Source: Bacteroidales bacterium (GTDB taxonomy: Bacteria > Bacteroidota > Bacteroidia > Bacteroidales > SZUA-534). Taken from it: a DNA stretch of 64,000 nucleotides. Of this stretch, positions 10,234 through 57,349 are shown one piece after another. Each line of letters begins with the position of its first letter. Position 1 is the stretch's first letter. The notes beneath the pieces are model-generated. The model ran no database searches. It was not told where the DNA came from and saw only the letters and a list, made by a program, of their open reading frames with translations. The stretch lies in contig JAZUEN010000045.1 of the NCBI GenBank assembly GCA_045640185.1, forward strand, positions 1,088 to 65,087, written 5' to 3'. A program made the translations under genes and the position numbers.

Positions 10234-12309
10234 CTACTTCAGCCACTTGTCGAGCCAACTGAAGAACGTACGTTGCCACAATATTCCGTTTTGTGGCTGA
10301 AGCACCCAGTGGTTCTCATCGGGGAAAATAAGCAGTTCGGCAGGAACGCCACGCAATTTGGCCGCGGCAAATGCCGACATTCCTTGCGATGCCAATATGC
10401 GATAGTCCTTCTCGCCGTGAATGCAAAGAATTGGCGTATCCCATTTATCAACAAACTTATGGGGCGATGTTGCGTACGAGCGTTGAGCCACCTCGTTCTC
10501 CTTGTCCCAGAATGGTCCGCCAATGTCGTGATTCTCGAACCACATCTCCTCTGTCTCAAGATATTGCTGTTCAAAGTTGAACATTCCGTCGTGGGCAATG
10601 AATGCCTTGAAGCGTTTCTCGTGATGTCCCGCAATCCAATATACCGAATAACCGCCGAAACTTGCGCCTACGCAGCCAAGGTGGTCTGTATCAACCCAAG
10701 GTTCCTTGCTGTAGGTGTCAATTGCAGTAAAATAGTCCTTCATGCAAAGTCCGCCGTAATCGCCGCTTATCTCCTCAAGCCATTCCATTCCGTAGCCATA
10801 CAAGCCTCGACGGTTTGGCGCAACTATTATGTAATCGTTGGCTGCCATAATCTGGAAATTCCAACGATAACTCCAGAACTGGCTCACTGGACTTTGCGGA
10901 CCGCCTTCGCAGTATAGCAATGTCGGATATTTCTTGCTGGCATCGAATTTTGGAGGATAAATCACCCAAACCTGCATTTGCTTGCCGTCGCAAGTCTCCA
11001 TCCAACGCTCCTCCACCTTGCCGAAATCCATTTGGTCAAGCAACGGCTTGTTTTCGAAAGTTATCTGTTTCTGCTCGCCCGATACGGGATCGACAACATA
11101 TATGTCGTTTGGCGCACTCATCGAATGGCGGACTGCCACCAGTTTGTCCCCTGCCAATGCCACCGATTCATAATCGTGCTGACCGACAGTTATCTGCTTG
11201 AATATTTTTGAGTTGATGTCGGCTTTGTAGATTTGGATTGTCCCGTGCTGGCAACTAATCAGATAGATGCTTTTGCCTTCGGCATCCCAGACAAACTGCT
11301 CTACGCTTTGGTCCCAGCCCTCACTCACGTCAGTACGCTGACCAGTAGCCAACTCTATCACCATCATACGGTTCTTGTCCGACTCACAGCCGTCACGCTC
11401 CATACTCTGAAATGCGATCTTTGTCCCGTCAGGCGAGAATGCAGGATTGATGTCATAGCCCATCATACCTTCAGTAAGGTTCTTCACCGTCTTGCCTGCG
11501 GAAATATCATATAGGTAAATATCTGAATTTGTTGATATTGCATATTCAAGACCTGTCTTTTTGCGACAAGTGTACGCAACAGTCTTGCTGTCTGGCGAAA
11601 AGGCAATCTGCTCAATGCCGCCAAAAGGTTTCATCGGACATTCATACGGCTCCCCCTCAAGCATGTCACGCTCGTTTGACACCGTAGTGCCGTCATAATC
11701 GAGCAGGAATGGATGCGGGACAGTCTCAACCCATTCGTCCCAATGCTTGAACATCAAATCGTCGATAATCTTTCCTGACGATTTAGGGAGATCGGGATAT
11801 ACATCAACCGTACGTTGCCCGTATTTCACATCGGCCACCACTAGTATCTTGCTGTCGTCTGGCGAATACATGAAATCGCTTATTCCGCCTTCGTGGCTGG
11901 TTACCTGTCGGCGTTCAGTTCCATCGAGGTTCATCTCCCAGACCTGCATGTCACCGCCTTCAGGCGACATAAATGCCACCTTGCTTCCGCCTTTAACCCA
12001 TTTTGCGCCATATTCGCTTTTGGCCGATTGGGTTATCTGCCTGTTATCGGTGCCATCCACGTTGACTGCAAATATTTCACGGTTGCTCTTGTTGGCCTCC
12101 ACGCTGTAATAGGTTACGCCATATAGCACCTGCTTGCCGTCTGGACTCACCTGCGCATCGGCAAGCCGCCCAAAAGCCCACAAGGCTTCTGGCGTCATTC
12201 TTCCATTTTCAATTTTCAGTTCGCTTTTGCCAATGATTGGCTCGTCGTTCGAACTGCACGACGTTAGTGTTGCTGACACTGCCATAACTGCCATTAATTT
12301 GAGTTTCAT
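10234..12309 (-). CDS. S9 family peptidase (dipeptidyl-peptidase 5-like), lipoprotein
   Basis: Lipobox LTSC, PD40-type propeller repeats, GASFGG nucleophile, HGEKDYR, DENHW. Confidence 0.9.
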   Translation of the reverse strand: MKLKLMAVMAVSATLTSCSSNDEPIIGKSELKIENGRMTPEALWAFGRLADAQVSPDGKQVLYGVTYYSVEANKSNREIFAVNVDGTDNRQITQSAKSEYGAKWVKGGSKVAFMSPEGGDMQVWEMNLDGTERRQVTSHEGGISDFMYSPDDSKILVVADVKYGQRTVDVYPDLPKSSGKIIDDLMFKHWDEWVETVPHPFLLDYDGTTVSNERDMLEGEPYECPMKPFGGIEQIAFSPDSKTVAYTCRKKTGLEYAISTNSDIYLYDISAGKTVKNLTEGMMGYDINPAFSPDGTKIAFQSMERDGCESDKNRMMVIELATGQRTDVSEGWDQSVEQFVWDAEGKSIYLISCQHGTIQIYKADINSKIFKQITVGQHDYESVALAGDKLVAVRHSMSAPNDIYVVDPVSGEQKQITFENKPLLDQMDFGKVEERWMETCDGKQMQVWVIYPPKFDASKKYPTLLYCEGGPQSPVSQFWSYRWNFQIMAANDYIIVAPNRRGLYGYGMEWLEEISGDYGGLCMKDYFTAIDTYSKEPWVDTDHLGCVGASFGGYSVYWIAGHHEKRFKAFIAHDGMFNFEQQYLETEEMWFENHDIGGPFWDKENEVAQRSYATSPHKFVDKWDTPILCIHGEKDYRILASQGMSAFAAAKLRGVPAELLIFPDENHWVLQPQNGILWQRTFFSWLDKWLK

Positions 12310-24925: not shown

Positions 24926-26824
24926 TTGTCAATGACAAAGAAGGCCATCACAACTATCCTCGTCACCTTATTGATTTGCATAAACTATTATGCAACAGCC
25001 CAATATATGTCTCCGGAAGACGAAGAAAAGATTGGACGTCTTGAGGAATTGGCATCGAACTATTACAATGAGAACAACCTTCCTAAAGCGGCACAGACCT
25101 TCAATCTCATTGCAAAGTCATATATGAATTACGGATATATCCCAAAAGCCGTAACCAATTTCAACAATGCCGCAGAAATATACATCCAACTAAACAAACT
25201 CGAAGAGACCCGCAACACATATACTAACATTGCCGTTGCGTATAGCGAGATTGACGAATTGGAACTCATGTGTCAATACTTTGAAAAAAGCCTTGAAATA
25301 CGACGCAAAATTGGCGAAAGCAACCAACTTGCATCAGGACTTATCGACCTCGCCTTTGGCTTAAATGCAATAACCCACTATGATGATGCAATAAAGTTGC
25401 TCGAAGAGGCGCTAAAGCTATCTTCCGAAGCAAACAACACGTCGTTAGTACTTGAATGCTACAAACAATTATCGAACAATTACAAGCAGACAGGCAATCT
25501 ACGATTGGCACAAGAAATGGCGAGCAAAGCCGAAACATACGCTCAAAACATAAATAAAGAAGCTACTGCCCGTGAATATGAAACTCGAGTGCTAAAATCA
25601 GAATCGAAATCAGCCGTACTGAAAAAGGAAAACAGCGAACTACTTGCGCAACAATTGGAAGACCAGCTGAACGCCTTGAAACTAAAATTAAGACAAGACT
25701 CACTTGACAATGAATTGAAGGCAGAACAAGAAAGATTCCTTGAGGAAGAGAGAAAAACAAATGATGCAAAGAAAGAGGCAGAACGGCTTGCTCTTGAAAA
25801 CAAGAACAAGGAGCTTGTCAACGCTCAATTGCTCGCTGAAAGTCAAACATTTAAAATATACATTTATATTGCAATTGCCGTACTTATTATAATATCGATT
25901 TTTGCAATATTCCTGATCCGAGCCAACCGAATCAGAAAACTGAACAACATCAAGCTGGCCCAACAAAATGACGAGATTATCAAAAAAGGTGAAGAACTGA
26001 ACGATGCACTGAAAAAAATCGAGCATCAGAACCAGAGCATAACACAAAGTATCAACTATGCTAAAGGCATTCAGCAGGCCTTGCTACGCAAGCAGGAAGC
26101 TCTAAACGACTACATAAAGGATGCTTTCATCTTCTTCAAGCCTCGCGATATTGTGAGTGGCGACTTCTACTGGTTCAACGAAGTCTGCATAAACCCTTCA
26201 AAATCACTGGAAGAAGCCGACTTGTCGGAAAAAAGGTTTATAGTCACAGCTGTCGATTGTACTGGCCACGGTGTTCCTGGTGCATTCATGTCCATGATCG
26301 GCTTTAACCTGCTTAATGCCATAACCGCAAATGGAACGTACCATGCCAACGAAATCCTGGAGCAGCTGCACATTGGCGTACAGAACACTCTGAAACAAAA
26401 GGAGACACTGAACCAAGATGGCATGGATATGGCCCTATGCGTTATCGACCCAAGCACAAAAACCATTGAATATGCTGGCGCGAAAAACCCTGTCGTGTAT
26501 ATTCAAGGCGAAGAACTGAACATCATAAAAGGTGACACTGATGGCATTGGTGGCAAAGAAGACAACGTAAAATTCACATGCCACACCATAACCATTGATC
26601 AACCCACATGGTTCTACATCTTCTCCGACGGCTACATTGACCAATTCGGTGGCGAACTTGGCCGCAAATTCATGATCAGCAACTTCAAGAAATACCTGCT
26701 AAGCATACACAACGAATCGCCCGAAACCCAGCGCGAAATGCTCAAGCAAAACATCATAGATTGGCGAGGCACTAAATACAATCAGCTCGACGACATGATG
26801 GTCATAGGATTCAAACTTGAATAA
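24926..26824 (+). CDS. TPR-sensor membrane PP2C/SpoIIE-family phosphatase
   Basis: Signal peptide, TPR repeats, coiled coil, one TM helix; PRDIVSGDFYW, VDCTGHGVPGAFMS, DGMD, SDGYIDQFGG, DD. Confidence 0.9.
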   Translation: MSMTKKAITTILVTLLICINYYATAQYMSPEDEEKIGRLEELASNYYNENNLPKAAQTFNLIAKSYMNYGYIPKAVTNFNNAAEIYIQLNKLEETRNTYTNIAVAYSEIDELELMCQYFEKSLEIRRKIGESNQLASGLIDLAFGLNAITHYDDAIKLLEEALKLSSEANNTSLVLECYKQLSNNYKQTGNLRLAQEMASKAETYAQNINKEATAREYETRVLKSESKSAVLKKENSELLAQQLEDQLNALKLKLRQDSLDNELKAEQERFLEEERKTNDAKKEAERLALENKNKELVNAQLLAESQTFKIYIYIAIAVLIIISIFAIFLIRANRIRKLNNIKLAQQNDEIIKKGEELNDALKKIEHQNQSITQSINYAKGIQQALLRKQEALNDYIKDAFIFFKPRDIVSGDFYWFNEVCINPSKSLEEADLSEKRFIVTAVDCTGHGVPGAFMSMIGFNLLNAITANGTYHANEILEQLHIGVQNTLKQKETLNQDGMDMALCVIDPSTKTIEYAGAKNPVVYIQGEELNIIKGDTDGIGGKEDNVKFTCHTITIDQPTWFYIFSDGYIDQFGGELGRKFMISNFKKYLLSIHNESPETQREMLKQNIIDWRGTKYNQLDDMMVIGFKLE

Positions 26825-36246: not shown

Positions 36247-37536
36247 TTACTTTTCTAATACTGATTTATAAACATTGTAAACGTGCTTTGCCGACTCTTC
36301 CCAACGTAAGCTGTTGGCTTCTTTCAAACCATTTTCGCCAATAGTCTGGGCCAGCGAAGGATAGTTAAGCAAGGCATATATGGCGTTAGCCATCTTATCG
36401 ATATCCCAGAAATCAATCTTAATGGCGTGTTTCAGGATCTCGCTGACACCCGACTGCTTTGAGATGATGACAGGGACACCAGATTGCATTGCCTCAAGCG
36501 GAGAAATGCCAAACGGCTCTGATACAGACGGCATAATATACACATCGCTATAGTTGAACATGCGGAACACGGCATCACCACGCAAGAATCCTGTAAAATG
36601 GAACTTGTCCATTATACCAAGACTTGCCGCACGCTCTATCATCTTGTTCATCATATCGCCGCTACCTGCCATGACGAAACGTACGTTATCCATGCGCTTA
36701 AGCACCTTGTAGGCAGCCTCGATGAAGAACTCAGGGCCTTTCTGCATTGTGATGCGTCCAAGGAATGTCACGACTTTCTCATCGAAACCTTTCTTTTGCT
36801 TGTTCAATGCTTTCAGGTTTGGCTCAACTGCATTGTAAACAGTCACCACCTTGTCTGGCGATTGCCCGTATTTATTTATGACGATGTCACGAGTAAGATT
36901 GCTGACGGTAATTGCGCGATCAGCGGCATCAAGGCCAGCACGCTCAATATTGTACACTGCCGGATTTACGCTACCGCCACTGCGGTCGAAATCAGTTGCA
37001 TGGACGTGAACGACAAGAGGCTTGCCTGACACACGTTTTGCAGCCATTCCTGCAGGATATGCCAACCAATCGTGTGCGTGGATAATGTCAAAGTCGTACA
37101 TTGTCGCAATCTGCTCGGCAATTAGACTATAATAGTATATTTCCTGGAACAAATTATCGCCATACTTACCTGTAAATGGAATGCATCCCGACTCGCCTAC
37201 TTCAACAAAATGCTTGCTGCTGTAGCGTTTGTCGCTTTTCAAAGAATAGAATTCCTCTGGTGTCGAATATGGGACCAAATTTGAGCCAACCTCAAGATAT
37301 TCAAGGTTACGAATCTGATTTGAATGATACTCGGCTCTTGTAATTTTCAATGGGATATTACCGGCCCCGACTAGTTTGATAGCCTCTTGATCCTCATCGC
37401 CATACGCCTTAGGAACGACAAAGATGACCTCGAGATCTTCTATCTTCGACATTCCTTTGGTAAGACCGTAACAAGCGGTACCCAAGCCTCCGGAAATGTG
37501 AGGTGGAAATTCCCAACCGAACATTAATACTTTCAT
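36247..37536 (-). CDS. GT4 family glycosyltransferase (glycogen cluster)
   Basis: WEFPPHISGGLG, HAHDW, EPFGISPLEA. Confidence 0.9.
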   Translation of the reverse strand: MKVLMFGWEFPPHISGGLGTACYGLTKGMSKIEDLEVIFVVPKAYGDEDQEAIKLVGAGNIPLKITRAEYHSNQIRNLEYLEVGSNLVPYSTPEEFYSLKSDKRYSSKHFVEVGESGCIPFTGKYGDNLFQEIYYYSLIAEQIATMYDFDIIHAHDWLAYPAGMAAKRVSGKPLVVHVHATDFDRSGGSVNPAVYNIERAGLDAADRAITVSNLTRDIVINKYGQSPDKVVTVYNAVEPNLKALNKQKKGFDEKVVTFLGRITMQKGPEFFIEAAYKVLKRMDNVRFVMAGSGDMMNKMIERAASLGIMDKFHFTGFLRGDAVFRMFNYSDVYIMPSVSEPFGISPLEAMQSGVPVIISKQSGVSEILKHAIKIDFWDIDKMANAIYALLNYPSLAQTIGENGLKEANSLRWEESAKHVYNVYKSVLEK

Positions 37537-47759: not shown

Positions 47760-49949
47760 TTAATTGCCCAATTCCAATTGGTTCTTGACCAAATTATAAT
47801 AAGCGCCTCGTTTTTCGACCAATTCTGTATGTGTTCCAACTTCCAATACCTTTCCTTCGCCTAACACGATAATTTGGTCTGCATTTTTAACAGTACTTAG
47901 ACGATGTGCAACAACTATAGTCGTACGACCTTCGTAAAACTCTGATAAATTCTCAACAATAGCACGTTCGTTTTCAGCGTCAAGGGCATTTGTTGCTTCA
48001 TCAAGGAACAAAAAGCTTGGATTTTTATAAACCGCACGAGCTATAAGTATGCGCTGTTTTTGCCCCTGGCTCAAACCAATTCCATCTTGTCCAATTTTTG
48101 TATCATACCCTAATGGCAATTGTAAAATAAAATTTTTTATGTTGGCTATTTCAGACGCAATAGACAACCGATTCTCATCGACAGGACCATCTCCGACCGC
48201 TATATTTCTGGTTATTGATTCGGAAAAAATGACACCATCCTGCATAACAACGCCACATTGACGGCGCCACCACTTTTTGCTGTATTCATTTATATCAACT
48301 CCATCTACCTTGACTGCACCTTCTTGTACCTTGTAATAGCCTAACAGAAGTTTTATAAGTGTTGTCTTGCCACTACCGCTTGCGCCAACAATGGCCGTAA
48401 CCTTGCCATGCGGAATGATAAGACTGACATTCTCAATAGTTTTTGTCGGACTATGCGGATCGTACTTGAAACTGACATTTTCAAACCTTACATCTGGCTT
48501 GTCAGACTGAAATCGTGATATTTGACTGGAATTTGCGTCTTCATTGTCAACAATGTGAATTTCATTAATTCGTTCAAGACTTATTTTTACATCCTGCAAT
48601 GCATAGAAGAAACCCATAAGTTCATCGATTGGACTATTTAGTTGACCTATAATATATTGCACCGCCAACATCGCACCTAACGTCAATTGTCCATTGATGA
48701 CAGCCGTAGCGGACAGCACTGTGATTATCATATTTTTGACCTCGTTGATGAATACAGAGCCAACTTCTTGTGTTTGGTTGATCTTCAATCTCTTCATCTG
48801 AGCTCCAAACAAATCGACCTGAACATTCTTCCACTCTTGACGACGGCGACGTTCGCAATCTTGCAACTTTATTTCCTGCATTGCAGTTATGAATTGATAA
48901 GTCTTATTGGCATTTTCAGATTGCCGTTCAAACAATTCATAATCAATTACTCTACGTTTATTCAAAAACAAGGCTATCCATCCGCCATACATCAAGCCAA
49001 ACAACAGAAAAATAATGAATATCAATCTATTATATATACAAAGCACTACACCAAACACTACAAAGCTTATCATTGAGAACATTACGCTTAGTGTCTGATT
49101 TGTAAGGAACTTCTCCACTCTGCTGTGGTCCTCCATTCGTTGCAACAAGTCTCCCAACAATTTTGTGTCGAAAAACGACATAGGAAGTTTAAGCAACTTA
49201 ATGAAGAAATCGCTGACTAGCGAAATATTAATGCGCATACTGATATGCAACAATATCCATCGACGGAAGAAATCGACTGCAGTTCGGCTCAAAACCAAAA
49301 CAAATTGGCCAAGCAATATGAGCCACACAAGTTTGACACTGTTGCGCTCAATACCGACATCAACAACAGCCTGCGTAAGAAACGGCAATATTAATTGCAA
49401 GACACTGCCAATTGCCAAGCTGACAATTATCCTACCAAAATATTTCTTGTAGCGTTTGAAATAGCCAAATAAGAATTTAAAATCATGTTGTTCGGGTGCC
49501 TTGCGAAGCTCCGAATCGAAAAATTTTGGAGTTGTCTCCAAAAACATTGCCACTCCGCATTTCTCTCCTTCCACTTCGCAACTCAGCCACGATTTCGAAA
49601 ATTCAGAATCACTGAGCACAAGCAATCCTTTGCCTGGGTCGGCAATATAGTATTTATGCTTTCGGACTTTATAGAGCACTACAAAATGGTTCTGATTCCA
49701 ATGCAGGATTGCTGGCAAAGGTGCCTCTGACAATTCCTTTAGCCCAACCTTTCCTGCGACTGGATTAAATCCCAATTTTGTAGATGCTTCACTTATGCCA
49801 AGCAAACTAACGCCCTCGGTTGTTGCAAAGCAAATCTTTGACAGTTCTGCAAGCGAATACTCACGACCATAGTATTTGCACACCATTTGCAGGCAAGCAA
49901 TACCACATTGCATTGAATCGTGCTGTATGGTTAGTGGAAAACGGAACAT
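47760..49949 (-). CDS. C39 peptidase-containing ABC transporter (PCAT)
   Basis: QHDSMQCG, HWNQNHFVV, IADP, TM domain, GASGSGKT, LSQGQKQR, LDEAT. Likely ATG at 49949. Confidence 0.93.
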   Translation of the reverse strand: MFRFPLTIQHDSMQCGIACLQMVCKYYGREYSLAELSKICFATTEGVSLLGISEASTKLGFNPVAGKVGLKELSEAPLPAILHWNQNHFVVLYKVRKHKYYIADPGKGLLVLSDSEFSKSWLSCEVEGEKCGVAMFLETTPKFFDSELRKAPEQHDFKFLFGYFKRYKKYFGRIIVSLAIGSVLQLILPFLTQAVVDVGIERNSVKLVWLILLGQFVLVLSRTAVDFFRRWILLHISMRINISLVSDFFIKLLKLPMSFFDTKLLGDLLQRMEDHSRVEKFLTNQTLSVMFSMISFVVFGVVLCIYNRLIFIIFLLFGLMYGGWIALFLNKRRVIDYELFERQSENANKTYQFITAMQEIKLQDCERRRRQEWKNVQVDLFGAQMKRLKINQTQEVGSVFINEVKNMIITVLSATAVINGQLTLGAMLAVQYIIGQLNSPIDELMGFFYALQDVKISLERINEIHIVDNEDANSSQISRFQSDKPDVRFENVSFKYDPHSPTKTIENVSLIIPHGKVTAIVGASGSGKTTLIKLLLGYYKVQEGAVKVDGVDINEYSKKWWRRQCGVVMQDGVIFSESITRNIAVGDGPVDENRLSIASEIANIKNFILQLPLGYDTKIGQDGIGLSQGQKQRILIARAVYKNPSFLFLDEATNALDAENERAIVENLSEFYEGRTTIVVAHRLSTVKNADQIIVLGEGKVLEVGTHTELVEKRGAYYNLVKNQLELGN

Positions 49950-49993
49950 TATTGCCACATTTGCAGACAACAAAAAAATAAAAACAACTTACA

Positions 49994-51208
49994 TTAATTT
50001 ACATCTTCCATCATTTCACTGAAATCAACATCAGGATACTTATCCTTAAGAGACTCTATGATTTTTCTGATTTTCTTTGAATGATATTTAGTGGCAAAGT
50101 TTTTGTCATGCTTTATTTCATCATACCTCCATTCGTTCAAATCTTCGAAACTTAGTGAAATTGGTCTAAACATTGTAATATCGCCAAAAGAACCGAAGCA
50201 ATTCACAACATCATTTTTTGCCACATAACGACTTTTCTTGCCATCAAGTGCAGTATGTGTGAAATAACACTCATTGTAAAAATGAGACAAATGATATTTG
50301 CCATTTTGCTTGGAAAATTGCAACCTCGTAACGGATGAATCTACGGAATGATATTCCACACTTTTCGAAAAACGACCAATATCAATAGTAACATCTTTCT
50401 GCACCAACAAGCCTTCATCAACGACACCGTACTCAATATACACAATCGCAAAATCCTTCTTGTCAATTTTCACAATTCCACTATACGGATGTTTTGAATC
50501 GACCACGTTTGGTCGAAAACAGATACAATAGCACACGCTATCACCAACATCTTTTGAATATGTGTAACAATCTGTATTTTCAATAAAATCCAAATTGCCA
50601 ATATATAACTGACTAATAAGATTGACAGGGAACGCATCGCTTTTGTACGAAACTGTGTAATCCACCGTTTTTCGGTTATTCCAAAAGGCATCATAATCGA
50701 ACAATCTGTACTCACTTGGCTGTTTCTTAACATAACCTTTTATTGAACCAATGACATTGCCTTCAAAAACTGAAAGTATAGCACTGTCAGATTCAATAAG
50801 ATGATGTACCGACAGCAAGTACCTTTTCAAAGCCAAAGGGTAATTTATTGATAAAATTTCTCTTGCGCGCTTAATCAACTGTGCTGGATTATCGTAATGC
50901 ACCATTACTTCATCTAAAGTTACGCAATACGGCGCAAGAGTTACTAATGTGTCAAGTTTTGATACAGCACATATGAATGCATCATAACCAACATAAGAAA
51001 TCACAACAGTATCATCTGCAAGCAACACACTGTCAAACTCAAAGTATCCATCTTCGTCTGTAATTGTGCCTACATTATTTTTCACAAAAAAGACATTTGC
51101 AAAAGGCAATGGCACGCTATCATTTTTTGAGACACACCTTCCCTCAAAATGTTGAGCATTCAGTCCGTAACTGATGCTTAACAATACTACAATTATAAAA
51201 AATCGCAT
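49994..51208 (-). CDS. Carboxypeptidase-like regulatory domain-containing secreted protein
   Basis: Signal peptide from ATG 51208; PLPFANV...GTITDEDGYF...ISYVGY...LDEV. The longer ORF start runs into the repeat. Confidence 0.8.
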   Translation of the reverse strand: MRFFIIVVLLSISYGLNAQHFEGRCVSKNDSVPLPFANVFFVKNNVGTITDEDGYFEFDSVLLADDTVVISYVGYDAFICAVSKLDTLVTLAPYCVTLDEVMVHYDNPAQLIKRAREILSINYPLALKRYLLSVHHLIESDSAILSVFEGNVIGSIKGYVKKQPSEYRLFDYDAFWNNRKTVDYTVSYKSDAFPVNLISQLYIGNLDFIENTDCYTYSKDVGDSVCYCICFRPNVVDSKHPYSGIVKIDKKDFAIVYIEYGVVDEGLLVQKDVTIDIGRFSKSVEYHSVDSSVTRLQFSKQNGKYHLSHFYNECYFTHTALDGKKSRYVAKNDVVNCFGSFGDITMFRPISLSFEDLNEWRYDEIKHDKNFATKYHSKKIRKIIESLKDKYPDVDFSEMMEDVN

Positions 51209-51267
51209 TCTTTTTGTTTTGCCAAAATCAATGATGTTCCTTTCCCTTACTACTATCAAAAATACAA

Positions 51268-51359
51268 AAAAACGCCACTCCAAATATTTGAAGTGGCGCT
51301 GTGATATCGGAATAAATCCGTACGATTTACTTCTGAAGCACATCCGACCGCTACGAGTT
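51268..51359. repeat. Left direct repeat: copy of htpG 3' end plus terminator
   Basis: 51268-51340 matches 52972-53044 at 68/73 nt; gapped similarity continues for ~18 nt. Confidence 0.92.
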
Positions 51360-51423
51360 ATCTAAAGAACTGACATCATTGCAAAAAACATCATTAGTGA
51401 TTTTTGAAATGTGCAGTTGCAAC

Positions 51424-52782
51424 TCAAAAAATGCAGTTTTCTTCCGACGGTTCAGTTTGGTCGATACACATAACATAGTATATTGGCATATAGATAACCT
51501 TACCCACAGTACGCACTTCCCTATCGTTATCAAGGACAATGGCTGTAGGAATGTCATACTCATCATTTTCAAGAAAGCGGTCCAAAGCCCGATGCCGTGC
51601 ATAGTCCTTGCCCGATTTCACTTCAACAGGAAGGACTGTCGTATCTGACACATTGTTTATCAAATAGTCAACTTCGCCTTTTGTCGCATTATCGTAATAG
51701 AATAGTTCGTGTCCGTGAGCCTTCAGTTCCTGTGCCACTACACTCTCGTATACCGAACCCAAGTTTACGCTCAACTCATCTTTCATAACTGGTGCAATGT
51801 TGCTTCCGTACAATCGGCCTGTAAGCAAGCCCACGTCGTTCAAATATAGTTTCAGCAAGTTCTTGTGCACCGACTCCGAGAGTGGGTATTTGGGATTAGA
51901 TATGGCGTGCACATCGAGAGATATGCCTGAAGATATGAGATATTCAAACTCTTCAGCAAACCATTCGAACCTATCTCCTTTCTTGTCACGAATATCCTTT
52001 GCCACAATGCGTTTTTTCTTGTTTTCCATTTGAGACACTATCATATCGTAGATACGACGGACCAACAGTTTCTTGCTCGACTCGTTTTCATACTTTGTGG
52101 CATCCTCCTTATACAAGTTACGAATGGCATCCTGAACTTTCCGCACCTTTACGATGTTGTGAGTATCAATATATGTGTTGACTGCGTCAGGCAACCCACC
52201 GACCAACAGATATTTCTTGAACTCACTCAATAGATTATTGTGCTGTGCCTCCGTAAGCGAGACTTTACGTTTGTAGCAATCACGAACATGGTTGAGAGCG
52301 TCTTCCCCCCAACCCTCCGCAATCAACCATTCCTCAAAGTCCAACTGGTTCATTTGCATGCGAATTATGCTCCCGATAGGTATCGATGTCGTATTGTGTA
52401 ACGCGATGCCAAGCAGACTTCCACTGGCAATGTAAGTGAACTTTCCCTCTTCGCGGAAAAATTTCAGCATAGTCAAATATTGTGGATAGTGCTGTATTTC
52501 GTCAAGAAAAACAAGCGTATCAGACTTGTCGCCCAACTTTCCGCCTGCCACCATACTCAGGGCCATATAGAACTCGCTCAAATCATGTATGTCGCGAAAC
52601 AGGCCTTTCGTCTCATCATCTTTGACAAAATTCACCTCTACAAAGTTTTTGAAGAGTCGCTTGCCTACTTCCCGAATGATATACGACTTGCCAATCTGCC
52701 TTGCACCTTCAACCACTAATATCTTGTCGCTACTTGAACGCAGAAACAACTCAATATCAGCACTTATTTTTCTGTAAAGCAT
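51424..52782 (-). CDS. AAA+ ATPase (AAA_14-like) with DUF4143/PD-(D/E)XK C-terminal domain
   Basis: GARQIGKS, LVFLDEIQ, ASGSLLG, GGLPDAV, KLYLNDVGLL, EVDY...PVEVKSG. Confidence 0.9.
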   Translation of the reverse strand: MLYRKISADIELFLRSSSDKILVVEGARQIGKSYIIREVGKRLFKNFVEVNFVKDDETKGLFRDIHDLSEFYMALSMVAGGKLGDKSDTLVFLDEIQHYPQYLTMLKFFREEGKFTYIASGSLLGIALHNTTSIPIGSIIRMQMNQLDFEEWLIAEGWGEDALNHVRDCYKRKVSLTEAQHNNLLSEFKKYLLVGGLPDAVNTYIDTHNIVKVRKVQDAIRNLYKEDATKYENESSKKLLVRRIYDMIVSQMENKKKRIVAKDIRDKKGDRFEWFAEEFEYLISSGISLDVHAISNPKYPLSESVHKNLLKLYLNDVGLLTGRLYGSNIAPVMKDELSVNLGSVYESVVAQELKAHGHELFYYDNATKGEVDYLINNVSDTTVLPVEVKSGKDYARHRALDRFLENDEYDIPTAIVLDNDREVRTVGKVIYMPIYYVMCIDQTEPSEENCIF

Positions 52783-52785
52783 ATT

Positions 52786-52931
52786 AAAATTACACTTTTA
52801 TTAAAATTTTTCGCAAGCAAAATTACACTTTTTTAAGTTTTCAAACATCCCAAAATTACACTTTTTCGAATTTTTAATACTGCAAAAATTACACTTTTTG
52901 AAGTTTTCACATACTGAAAAATTACACTTTT
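52786..52931. repeat. Five perfect AAAATTACACTTTT 14-mers at exact 33-bp period
   Basis: Copies start at 52786, 52819, 52852, 52885 and 52918, with four different 19-bp spacers. Confidence 0.95.
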
Positions 52932-52971
52932 TGAAAATCACCCACATTCAACGTCCGATTTTGCATAAAAC

Positions 52972-53002
52972 AAAAACGCCACTCCAAGCATTTGGAGTGG
53001 CG
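52972..53002 (-). terminator. htpG terminator (part of right direct repeat 52972-53060)
   Basis: cgccactccaa / ttggagtggcg stem with a T tract on the minus strand. Confidence 0.85.
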
Positions 53003-53030
53003 CTGTGATATCGGAATAAATCCGAACGAT

Positions 53031-55085
53031 TTATTTCTGAAGCAATTCGACGCTACGGTTTACGAATACGTTCAAGTCTTCGCCCTTGAGCATATTGTTT
53101 GCAAGCAAAGCCAAATCGACCAACTGCTTTACAAGTGGCGTTGCCTTGCCGAACTCGCGCAACTTGGCGTCTTTTTGGTCGCGCAATGTGTTGATTTGCT
53201 TTTCGACGTCGGCAATCTGGTCCTTCAGCGACTGCGGGATCTCCTCTTCCTTCTTGTCCTTCTTTTGAGCCTCAAGGTCAGATTTCTGTTTGCTTAGCGG
53301 TTCAATCTGGGCATCAAACTCGGCCAACTGCGAGCCTACGCCTGCCTTTTCGGCATCGAGCACCTTCTGCACAAGCGGATGCGCCGTGTTTACGACAAGG
53401 TTGAAACTGTCGGGCATATCGCCGTAATAGTTCATTCCGCTCATTGCGGCAGTGTCCTTCATACGGCGCATAAACTCGTTTTGCGTTATCATCAAAGGCT
53501 TGCCCTCGGCGCCCAAGTCTTCAAACTCGACAATGAAGTAGCCTTTGTCTGGCGTAACTGAATTGAACACCTGGATAAGATTGTCGCGATCGGCCTGCTC
53601 CAACTTGCTTGCTGGCTCATCGTCCTTCTGAATCAGGCGGTTGATGACGTCGGCATCGACACGGGCGAAACGAGTCTTCTCAAGTTTCTGCTCGAGTTTG
53701 CCAATCATATGCATATCAAGTTGTCCGTCAAGCAGAAGCACATCGTAGCCCTTGGCCTTCGCGCTCTCGATGTACGAATATTGCGAATCCTTATCGGTTG
53801 CGTACAGATAAACCTTCGTATCGTTCTTGTCGGTTTGGTTTGTCTTGACCAAAGTTTCATATTCTTCGAGCGTAAAGTATTTATCTTCAATATTCTTAAA
53901 CAGATAGAACTTAACGGCGCGGTCGTAGAACTTCTCATCGGTGAGCATTCCGTACTCGATGAACAACTTGAGATTGTCCCACTTGCTCTCGAACTGTGCG
54001 CGGTCGGTCTTGAAGATCTCCTCCAAGCGGTCGGCGACCTTCTTTGTGATGTGGCTCGAAATCTTCTTGACATTTGAATCGGCCTGCAGATAACTGCGCG
54101 ACACGTTCAATGGGATGTCAGGCGAGTCGATTACGCCGTGCAAAAGTGTCAGGAATTCTGGCACAATGCCCTCAACACTGTCGGTGACAAACACCTGATT
54201 GCAGTACAGTTGAATCTTATTTTTCTGTATCTCGATGTTATTCTTGATTTTAGGGAAATACAGGATACCTGTAAGGTTGAACGGGTAATCGACGTTCAGG
54301 TGAATGTTGAACAACGGGTCTTCGAGCCCTGGATAGAGTTCGTGATAGAAGTTCATATAGTCTTCGTCCTTCAGGTCGGCAGGCTTGCGCGTCCACGCTG
54401 GTGTGGCATTGTTGATGATTTTGTCCTTATCGGTGTCAACCATCTTCTTGTCCTTGTCGCTCCACTCCTGCACCTTGCCGAATGCGATATCAACTGGCAG
54501 GAACTTGCAGTATTTGGTCAGCAACTGGTTGATACGGCTGTCTTCAAGGAACTCTTCGTTCTCGCTGTCGATATGCATAATGATATCGGTACCGAAATCG
54601 GATTTGGTGGTCTCTTCAAGAGTGAACTCTGGACTGCCGTCGCAACTCCATTTGATAGCCTTTGAGCCTTCCTTGTACGATTTTGTGATGATGTCGACAC
54701 GCTCCGAAACCATAAATGCGCTGTAGAATCCCAAGCCGAAATGGCCGATTATTGCGCCAATGTTGTCCTTGTACTTGTCAAGGAACTCGCCTGCGCTTGA
54801 GAATGCTATCTGATTGATATACTTGTCAACTTCTTCTTCAGTCATACCGATACCGTGGTCTGACACAACAATTGTCTTATTGCCCTTGTTGACCGATACG
54901 CGGACTGTCTTGTCGCCCAACTCGCCTTTGTAGTCGCCTTTGGCAGAAACGGCTATCATTTTTTGTGTTGCGTCGACTGCGTTTGCTACAATCTCACGCA
55001 AGAAAATCTCGTGGTCGGAATAAAGGAACTTTTTGATTACGGGGAAGATATTCTCGCTCGTAACACCTATTTTACCTGTTTGCAT
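53031..55085 (-). CDS. htpG: Hsp90 chaperone HtpG
   Basis: FLREIVANAVDA, DHGIGMT, IGHFGLGFYSAF, GVIDSPDIPLNVSRS. Confidence 0.96.
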   Translation of the reverse strand: MQTGKIGVTSENIFPVIKKFLYSDHEIFLREIVANAVDATQKMIAVSAKGDYKGELGDKTVRVSVNKGNKTIVVSDHGIGMTEEEVDKYINQIAFSSAGEFLDKYKDNIGAIIGHFGLGFYSAFMVSERVDIITKSYKEGSKAIKWSCDGSPEFTLEETTKSDFGTDIIMHIDSENEEFLEDSRINQLLTKYCKFLPVDIAFGKVQEWSDKDKKMVDTDKDKIINNATPAWTRKPADLKDEDYMNFYHELYPGLEDPLFNIHLNVDYPFNLTGILYFPKIKNNIEIQKNKIQLYCNQVFVTDSVEGIVPEFLTLLHGVIDSPDIPLNVSRSYLQADSNVKKISSHITKKVADRLEEIFKTDRAQFESKWDNLKLFIEYGMLTDEKFYDRAVKFYLFKNIEDKYFTLEEYETLVKTNQTDKNDTKVYLYATDKDSQYSYIESAKAKGYDVLLLDGQLDMHMIGKLEQKLEKTRFARVDADVINRLIQKDDEPASKLEQADRDNLIQVFNSVTPDKGYFIVEFEDLGAEGKPLMITQNEFMRRMKDTAAMSGMNYYGDMPDSFNLVVNTAHPLVQKVLDAEKAGVGSQLAEFDAQIEPLSKQKSDLEAQKKDKKEEEIPQSLKDQIADVEKQINTLRDQKDAKLREFGKATPLVKQLVDLALLANNMLKGEDLNVFVNRSVELLQK

Positions 55086-56264: not shown

Positions 56265-56978
56265 CTATTTTGATGAAATCGTGTTCAGGTCCTCCATAAG
56301 CGTATCGCGATACGACTTGCCAATTGGGACAAGTTTTGGACCTGTCTCGGTACGCATCACCACGTTGCATTCCTCGATATAGTCTATCCGGCTGACATTC
56401 ACTATATAGGAACGATGCACACGTTTAAATTTAGATAGAGGCAGCTTACTCTCTATCGCCTTCATTGTATAGTGGATTGTGAATTTTTCCTTGTACGTAT
56501 TGACTGTGACGTAGTTTTCGAGCGCCTCAACCCAAAGTATGTCCTCATACTTGATCCTGACCAAAGTGGAATTTTTCTTTTTGATGAAAATCTCATCAGG
56601 GAAGCTCGATGCGCTCTCCCTCTCCTGATACAGGGATAGCGCCTTGTTGACAGCCTTGAAGAAACGCTGCAGTGAAACAGGCTTCAGCAAATAGTCAACA
56701 ACATCATATTCGTAGGACTCGATGGCATATTTTTCCTGGCCCGAAACAATGATAATCATTGGCTTGACATCCAACGTATTGATGAAATCAAGGCCATTCA
56801 TTTCCGGCATTTCCATATCCAGGAACACCAAATCAATTGTATCTGGCAAGTCGAAAGCCTTAAAGGCTGCGACTGGGCTGTCATACGAACCCAATAAGTT
56901 CAGTGCGTCAGATTTTTCGGTCAAACCTTCCAAAACCTTACGACTCAGCAAATCGTCATCTATAATTATGCAATTCAT
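56265..56978 (-). CDS. LytTR family response regulator
   Basis: IIDDD, FLDMEMP, DYLLKP, RVHRSYIVN. Likely ATG at 56978. Confidence 0.93.
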   Translation of the reverse strand: MNCIIIDDDLLSRKVLEGLTEKSDALNLLGSYDSPVAAFKAFDLPDTIDLVFLDMEMPEMNGLDFINTLDVKPMIIIVSGQEKYAIESYEYDVVDYLLKPVSLQRFFKAVNKALSLYQERESASSFPDEIFIKKKNSTLVRIKYEDILWVEALENYVTVNTYKEKFTIHYTMKAIESKLPLSKFKRVHRSYIVNVSRIDYIEECNVVMRTETGPKLVPIGKSYRDTLMEDLNTISSK

Positions 56979-57349
56979 TACAGAAAGATTAAGGGGCATT
57001 CCTTAAATTCCCCGATTAAATAATTAAAAAATAACAAGTTGTTCCGCCACTCATTGTGTAAACTTTGTTTTTGTAGGCATCTTGCTGATTTTCACCCAAC
57101 AGCAGCATCCAAACCATTCTTGCGAAAAAAACATGGTCTGCCTAACAAGGCATACAAAATCACCACAAGCAATTTATAGAACTCCTTTTGATTTCACGAG
57201 AATTATTTTACAAATATAAATCAATTAAGTAAATGATAAATAGGTTACAGCACGAAAATCAACTTTCATCAACATTTTTATTTCATTTAACCACAAAACA
57301 CACACGTCTGCAATAGTTTTAATAAATTGCAAGACAATTTTGTCTTGCT

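Follow-up and report, generated by a model that had tools for sequence, protein, structure and literature searches.

In theta-replicating plasmids, Rep proteins such as RepA of pPS10, pi of R6K, TrfA of RK2 and RepA of P1 act on iterons, direct repeats of typically ~22 bp. In the ParR-parC systems of plasmids R1 and pSK41, tandem direct repeats lie over the promoter of the binder's own operon, which is autoregulated by cooperative binding. In type II restriction-modification systems, control is exerted by a small, separate HTH dimer, the controller (C) protein, which has two palindromic boxes. Archaeal Orc1/Cdc6 proteins and their origin recognition boxes (PDB 2qby) likewise bring together an AAA+ protein and repeated recognition sites next to its own gene.

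The locus studied here lies in a window of 64,000 nucleotides (the whole stretch of Bacteroidales DNA that was analysed) and consists of five 33-bp direct repeats directly upstream of a gene encoding an AAA_14 + DUF4143 protein. It resembles iteron/Rep systems in that helically phased direct repeats adjoin the gene of the presumed binder, in its predicted winged-helix-type module, in its variable copy number and in the apparent use of an inverted repeat as operator in some relatives. Unlike iterons, however, the units span three helical turns, there is no sign of an origin here with 21 loci in one genome, and an AAA+ ATPase and a predicted nuclease are joined in one protein that lacks any Rep-family domain (only AAA_14 and DUF4143 match in Pfam, and no NCBIfam model matches the 452-aa protein). 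With Orc1/Cdc6 it shares, according to the structure model, the AAA+ fold, the lid and the winged helix (Z ~12), but it belongs to no Cdc6/ORC Pfam family at E values up to 0.001, carries an added C-terminal PD-(D/E)XK nuclease, also predicted, and is preceded by direct repeats on a promoter rather than by boxes around an unwinding element. As in ParR-parC, a short direct-repeat array overlaps the promoter of the presumed binder's gene; ParR, however, is a small ribbon-helix-helix partition protein, whereas a single large ATPase-nuclease gene without partner genes is found here. Like the C proteins, a self-operator on the promoter would time and limit the nuclease of a mobile cassette on its entering a new cell, except that regulator and effector would here be one polypeptide with two to more than ten phased sites.

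The array occupies 52786..52950 on the minus strand, as delimited by pattern search, TRF and column analysis, and contains five invariant 14-bp cores (52786-52799, 52819-52832, 52852-52865, 52885-52898 and 52918-52931; AAAAGTGTAATTTT on the coding strand), the starts of which lie at -17, -50, -83, -116 and -149 relative to the ATG. The first-pass annotation had described five mismatch-free 14-mers, and pattern search recovered AAAATTACACTTTT exactly at 52786, 52819, 52852, 52885 and 52918 of the plus strand, with no further exact copy within the window. The four spacers quoted in that annotation are also correct, the array edge does lie 3 bp from the ATG of the ATPase gene (CAT on the plus strand at 52780-52782, first core at 52786), and an in-frame TAA six codons upstream of the start confirms that the array is no in-frame extension of the ORF. 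When up to two mismatches were allowed, AAAATTACACTTTT gave 7 matches in the window compared with a mean of 1.88 in 100 shuffles, one of which reached 7. TRF returned a 33-bp period across 52819-52935 with a score of 141. Throughout the whole genome of 3,008,384 bases the exact 14-mer occurs in these five places only, and the array cores make up five of the 11 sites that differ from it by at most one mismatch; the scattering over the 3.0-Mb genome that had been named as the observation to count against specific sites was thus not seen, exact copies being confined to the array.

Column analysis revealed 15 invariant columns out of 33, with a longest contiguous run of 14, a run that was found in 0 of 100,000 permutations. 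Pairwise identity was 100% in the core and 40% in the other 19 columns, compared with 30% expected from composition. The 14 contiguous invariant columns, the near-random remainder and the exact 33-bp step bear out the earlier suggestion of selection on core sequence and phase, and with core and unit length kept, the repeat must have existed long enough for decay to bring its spacers almost to random. A related genome (G006) has a copy of 99% identity that differs at three positions of the array, two in spacers and one in the last core. Assembled contigs from four RNA-library runs covered parts of the gene body and of the adjacent htpG, and none extended across 52740-52913. A single contig from run X16 (window ~52866-52917) joins spacer 3 directly to the distal-most core and then diverges; with one unit fewer, it may represent a copy-number variant in another strain or some other arrangement.

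The gene behind the array (51424..52782, minus strand; delimited from the ORF list, Pfam, PADLOC and the structure model) encodes a protein of 452 aa that matches AAA_14 with 77.8 bits (cut-off 27) and DUF4143 with 67.6 bits (cut-off 28.1). PADLOC assigned it over its full length to the phage-defence candidate PDC-S01 (PDLC04792, E 8.7e-172), with residues 1-447 aligned to positions 1-440 of the 452-position profile; this family corresponds to COG1373 and to the Pfam combination AAA_14 + DUF4143. The protein has a Walker A motif (GARQIGKS), a Walker B pair (D94/E95) and the nuclease residues D372, E387 and K389. Comparison of 91 sequences showed G26, G31, K32, D94, E370 and K389 to be invariant and E95, D372 and E387 to be nearly so, all of them present in the window's protein. 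Judged from its sequence, the C-terminal part is a predicted PD-(D/E)XK nuclease; the accessible part of one paper places DUF4143 in the PD-(D/E)XK superfamily, with function unknown (PMC3424549).

A structure model built from 91 family sequences (pLDDT 88.4, pTM 0.90) replaced an earlier one from 6 sequences (pLDDT 52.5). The closest superpositions of model residues 1-325 are with two Walker-type ATPases of archaea, PAB2304 (Z 16.9) and SSO1545 (Z 15.7), followed by NB-ARC/STAND modules (CED-4 and plant NLRs, Z ~14) and by ORC/Cdc6 chains (Z 11.6-12.3), some of which were solved on origin DNA. The modelled residues 1-325 are thereby assigned as an ORC/STAND-like AAA+ base, a lid and a winged helix (~residues 235-316). 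Sequence search of solved structures gave no match for the single protein, and with a profile it gave P-loop-level matches and 2fna at E 0.0003. Complex prediction with two copies of the 452-aa protein ended at a score of 0.00, which is no answer and carries no weight either way.

A census of the organism's own genome (G000, 3.0 Mb) with the DUF4143 profile identified 21 family genes. The 350 bp upstream of each gene were scored by self-alignment with a threshold of at least 17, and other ORFs of at least 300 aa served as controls. A phased upstream repeat was found at 18 of the 21 DUF4143 genes compared with 28 of 1218 control ORFs, one of the 28 being a divergent neighbour that has its array in common with a family gene. 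Five of the strongest 'control' arrays of the first pass lay upstream of other AAA_14 + DUF4143 genes. The three family genes below the threshold scored 13, 11 and 8, and two of these show two or three diverged units by eye, the third (C89) having no array. All five closer paralogues in the genome have a 32-33-bp tandem array directly upstream, with cores that are all different, so no single regulator is common to all. Six genes have a period of 22-23 bp, 12 one of 32-33 bp or its double and 2 one of 40-42 bp, and 1 has none; these classes, which amount to roughly two, three or four helical turns (10.5-11 bp each), follow the protein subfamily, as expected if protein geometry sets the spacing.

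Other DUF4143 paralogues of this genome have arrays much longer than that of the window. Those of C70 (~36720-36935) and C47 (upstream of 36985) have 22-bp units in at least 10 copies and score 150 and 100, respectively, and a DUF4143 paralogue of C35 is preceded, upstream of 18371, by seven 23-bp units at 118-277 bp from the ATG (score 130). Elsewhere in C35 (~11365-11470), four palindromic units of the TTTTCAGTTGTAACTGAAAA type are set at a 40-bp step in the space that separates a DUF4143 gene from a divergently oriented lipoprotein-like gene, and could serve the promoters of both. The strongest control array outside the family is a 14-bp-period repeat near 26595 (+) of C51, upstream of an unrelated ORF (score 55).

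The survey was extended to 95 genes of the window's subfamily from 41 related genomes, of which 92 with at least 300 bp of upstream sequence were used; kin are not independent, and the counts are given as descriptive, with no tests. The best self-alignment lag was 32-34 or 64-66 bp in 83 of the 92 genes compared with 121 of 1244 ORFs of the own genome, and a score of at least 25 was reached by 55/92 compared with 14/600 controls. The AAA/TTT signal of 54 arrays peaks at 11.0 bp (2.05, compared with 0.50-0.71 at the other harmonics of 33), which indicates three A/T tracts per unit, one helical turn apart. Members of the window's own clade, with proteins of 52-60% identity, have the core AAAAGTGTA, and its register to the ATG is kept within 1-2 nt (-16/-49/-82 and so on); the spacers have nothing in common. 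To this clade belongs a plasmid locus, pE2-28 of Prevotella sp. E2-28, with three units before the 'AAA family ATPase' gene L6465_RS14780. Only two matches to the cassette (64-67%) were found in the plasmid collection, both to 'AAA family ATPase' genes, and none in the phage collection. Unit number varies among close relatives, with three units in C41 of G000 compared with four in G006, and 3.4 in L059 compared with 4.5 in L063 and L064. The proposed check of homologous upstream regions, for phased cores that differ with the protein subfamily, thus came out positive in the own-genome census as well as in the 41-genome survey, and a general lack of phased repeats among homologues, which had been put forward as evidence to the contrary, was not encountered (18/21 genes of the own genome have them).

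Among distant members of the window's subfamily, 3 of 20 score at least 17, and 13 of 20 have their best lag at 32, 33 or 66, usually with two sites. In a phylum-wide sample drawn with the DUF4143 profile, which consists mostly of a different subfamily of ~390 aa, a score of at least 17 was reached by 2 of 23 genes, and many genes, by eye and uncounted, have instead an inverted repeat of 25-40 bp directly before the ATG. Such an inverted repeat is the classical form of a self-operator. The minimal form seems to be two sites three turns apart, of which the arrays of three to seven units in the window's relatives look like expansions. Array similarity correlates with the identity of the AAA+, winged-helix and nuclease domains at Pearson 0.54-0.57, with partial correlations of 0.09-0.12 (partial Mantel). 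This domain-level comparison does not single out the winged helix; since the array tracks the three domains about equally, the co-variation is what co-inheritance gives. Taken together, the array is a real, selected, family-wide cis element.

The array also coincides with a putative promoter. We take TAnnTTTG to be the Bacteroidota -7 promoter box. Two units had been noted to match this element, and indeed TAATTTTG occurs twice on the coding strand (minus), at 52818..52825, where it starts at -43 and overlaps the second core from the gene, and at 52851..52858, where it starts at -76 and overlaps the third; these two cores read TAATTTTG because a G comes next after each. The box at 52818..52825 is likely the core promoter of the ATPase gene. 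The position of this box predicts a transcription start at ~-30, so the last core would fall in the 5' leader. Among arrays scoring at least 20 (n = 64), TAnnTTTG is present within the last 120 nt in 50, the proximal box having a median start of -33.5, and absent from that stretch in 14. In 35 of the 50 arrays with a box it lies inside the array or no more than 12 nt from its proximal end, and in the other 15 it stands apart.

Cores that differ by paralogue, a period that follows the subfamily and the fact that only the ATPase gene moves with the array make the encoded protein the simplest reader of the sites. We consider it probable that the cores are cognate operator sites, to which the protein of the adjacent gene would bind cooperatively and thereby control its own gene. 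Recognition would be through the winged helix, perhaps with other parts of the protein. One protomer or one dimer would occupy each 33-bp unit; since 33 bp make three helical turns, all sites would lie on the same face of the DNA, with A/T tracts every 11 bp, and neighbouring protomers would bind cooperatively. Since a -7 box falls within a core, and a further core would fall within the 5' leader, filled sites would shut off transcription, and through the resulting steep negative feedback a nuclease that is potentially harmful to its own cell would be kept at a low set point. A burst of expression would follow when the 1.6-kb cassette described below enters a cell free of the protein, or when the protein is drawn off the array. 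Cooperative autorepression agrees with sites that are three turns apart on one face and overlap both the -7 box and the leader, and would make sense for a nuclease on a transferable cassette. That the encoded protein, not another factor, binds the sites, that it does so cooperatively and that it represses transcription are our reading of these features; as to the sign of regulation, repression rather than activation is a guess from the position of the sites. The element is thus most likely of the iteron- or operator-array type with a cognate binding protein, namely a self-operator array for which the encoded protein is the presumed ligand. The earlier proposal of iteron- or operator-like sites that the adjacent protein would read is favoured by the phased repeats of homologues and the unscattered 14-mer, and the versions that invoked origin-like loading or an RNA found no support.

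A more elaborate reading, which we hold to be rather unlikely when all its parts are taken jointly, regards PDC-S01 loci as one-gene immune modules with their own DNA docking station. On an intrinsically curved array that is specific to each gene and lies over its promoter, the protomers would assemble at intervals of two, three or four turns, and the parked ORC/STAND-like oligomer would be the resting state of a sensor. Invading DNA or a phage factor would release or switch the oligomer, giving a burst of synthesis together with activation of the nuclease, and gene-specific cores would prevent cross-talk among the 21 paralogues in the cell. Its core can be stated separately, and in that form too we judge it unlikely: the array would be the assembly platform of a defence machine, with one protomer per unit on curved DNA in an ORC/STAND-like oligomer parked on its own promoter, until it is displaced or activated by foreign DNA or by a factor of a phage, so that derepression and activation of the nuclease are coupled. 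The modelled ORC/STAND-like fold including the nuclease is consistent with such a platform, as are periods that are whole numbers of 11-bp turns, phased A/T tracts and numbers of units (three to more than ten) that exceed the need of simple autorepression. A Thermus relative, TT_P0211, is moreover listed as 6.6-fold up with a plasmid present in the accessible part of one report (PMC4406477). Distant relatives, however, manage with two sites or one palindrome, which fits plain autoregulation, and one PDC-S01 placed in E. coli B was, according to the accessible text of that study, not among the four candidates protective against T7, T5 or T4 (10.1101/2024.09.26.614923). With the one PDC-S01 tested outside the protective set, even a defence role is no more than putative.

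It is quite improbable that the array is instead a structural element of the promoter or a site for another host factor, in which phased tracts would bend the DNA and so boost or tune the promoter, and changes in unit number through recombination would determine how strongly the gene is expressed, with no part for the protein as reader. The A/T tracts recur every 11 bp, unit number varies among close relatives and the arrays are positioned like upstream promoter elements, all of which would suit such an element. Bending, however, has no need of 14 invariant bases including GTGTA, and within the window's clade the core is kept at 52-60% protein identity while the tract-bearing spacers drift. 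Cores that differ between paralogues of one genome mean that no single host factor fits, and the trait follows one gene family (18/21 compared with 28/1218).

The surroundings of the array bear on its possible role in mobility. A direct repeat of ~90 bp flanks the locus on the minus strand. Its right copy (52972..53062) comprises the 3' end of the live htpG gene (stop 53031-53033) and a terminator hairpin (52975-53004), and its left copy (51268..51360), behind the ATPase gene, holds a remnant of the htpG 3' end at a displaced position, together with a terminator-like hairpin. The two copies are 93% identical over 73 bp and then decay, and the left one ends in a synonymous version of the last htpG codons. 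Gene and array are therefore a ~1.6-kb insertion behind htpG (~51361-52971), bracketed by both repeat copies. Of 41 genomes including G000, the cassette is carried by G000 and G006 only (99% identity); in G006 the same short htpG remnant follows the cassette, and then a different terminator and gene, and in 14 further genomes of the genus htpG is followed by DNA of various other kinds. This bracketed insertion, its narrow distribution and an array whose distal end is ~20 bp from the insertion boundary would be consistent with a cis mobility site, which the ATPase-nuclease would recognise for recombination or homing, a reading we nevertheless regard as very improbable. The other end of the cassette has no core-like sequence, no recombinase is present at the cassette, host gene sequence makes up the duplicated flank, in keeping with replacement through homologous recombination, and the register of the array is fixed to the ATG and the promoter, not to the cassette ends.

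Several further features were observed around this position. In genome G005 (L011), four tandem 13-bp units lie ~60-120 nt behind the htpG stop and are followed by a lipoprotein-like gene (MKRIFSLGLIATV...), which comes after htpG without the repeat in three other genomes. Within the window, an ABC exporter of the bacteriocin-export type, which has a C39 peptidase domain at its N-terminus (47760-49973), and a LytTR-type response regulator (56265-56999) are found a few kb to either side of the array, and may form a peptide-signalling or bacteriocin locus. The listed start of a 449-aa ORF with a CarboxypepD_reg domain (49994-51343) falls inside the left repeat copy; its true start is more likely an ATG near 51213, from which the protein would begin with a signal-peptide-like stretch (MRFFIIVVLLSISYGLNAQ).

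That the array is a functional small repeat-spacer RNA, as the first-pass annotation had also considered, or a neutral minisatellite is barely credible: the fixed-length repeat with variable spacers is superficially CRISPR-like and some bacterial intergenic repeats are neutral, but the spacers, with 40% mutual identity, are degenerated copies of one another rather than foreign inserts, no Rfam family reaches its cut-off (best 25.6 bits compared with 65), folding z-scores of +0.69 and +0.12 on the two strands are no better than those of shuffles, the greater part of the array is upstream of the promoter box, and the contiguous, invariant core, conserved across species, contradicts neutrality. 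A CRISPR array was rejected, with a core of 14 nt compared with the ~23 nt or more expected, and with spacers whose 40% likeness and common sub-motifs mark them as decayed copies; no cas gene was found among the six neighbouring ORFs scanned. Origin-like loading of the protein, the other variant of the original proposal, is unlikely, and a replication origin was rejected as improbable in view of the multiplicity of the loci (21 in a 3.0-Mb genome) together with the lack of a match to any Rep or initiator family.

The finding matters because the gene family is abundant and the array offers a tangible way into its mechanism. PDC-S01 is given as the fourth most common prokaryotic defence candidate, with 29,494 bacterial and 9,986 archaeal copies, in the accessible text of one paper (PMC12988326), and as the most frequent single locus in rumen genomes in that of another (PMC13356809). 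So far as their accessible parts go, these papers and the E. coli B study characterise PDC-S01 by abundance and domain content only, with no cis array (PMC12988326, PMC13356809, 10.1101/2024.09.26.614923). The terms looked for were absent from the main text of the PADLOC source preprint (10.1101/2024.01.29.577857), and no description of a cis array for the DUF4143 / AAA_14 / COG1373 / PDC-S01 family was found in the accessible literature, supplements lying outside the search. For this family, the array predicts the DNA ligand of the protein and makes binding, oligomer geometry and regulation directly testable. Constructs that lack the native upstream 150-250 bp may misbehave. The 21 mutually distinct pairs of protein and site in one genome offer a natural system for the divergence of specificity.
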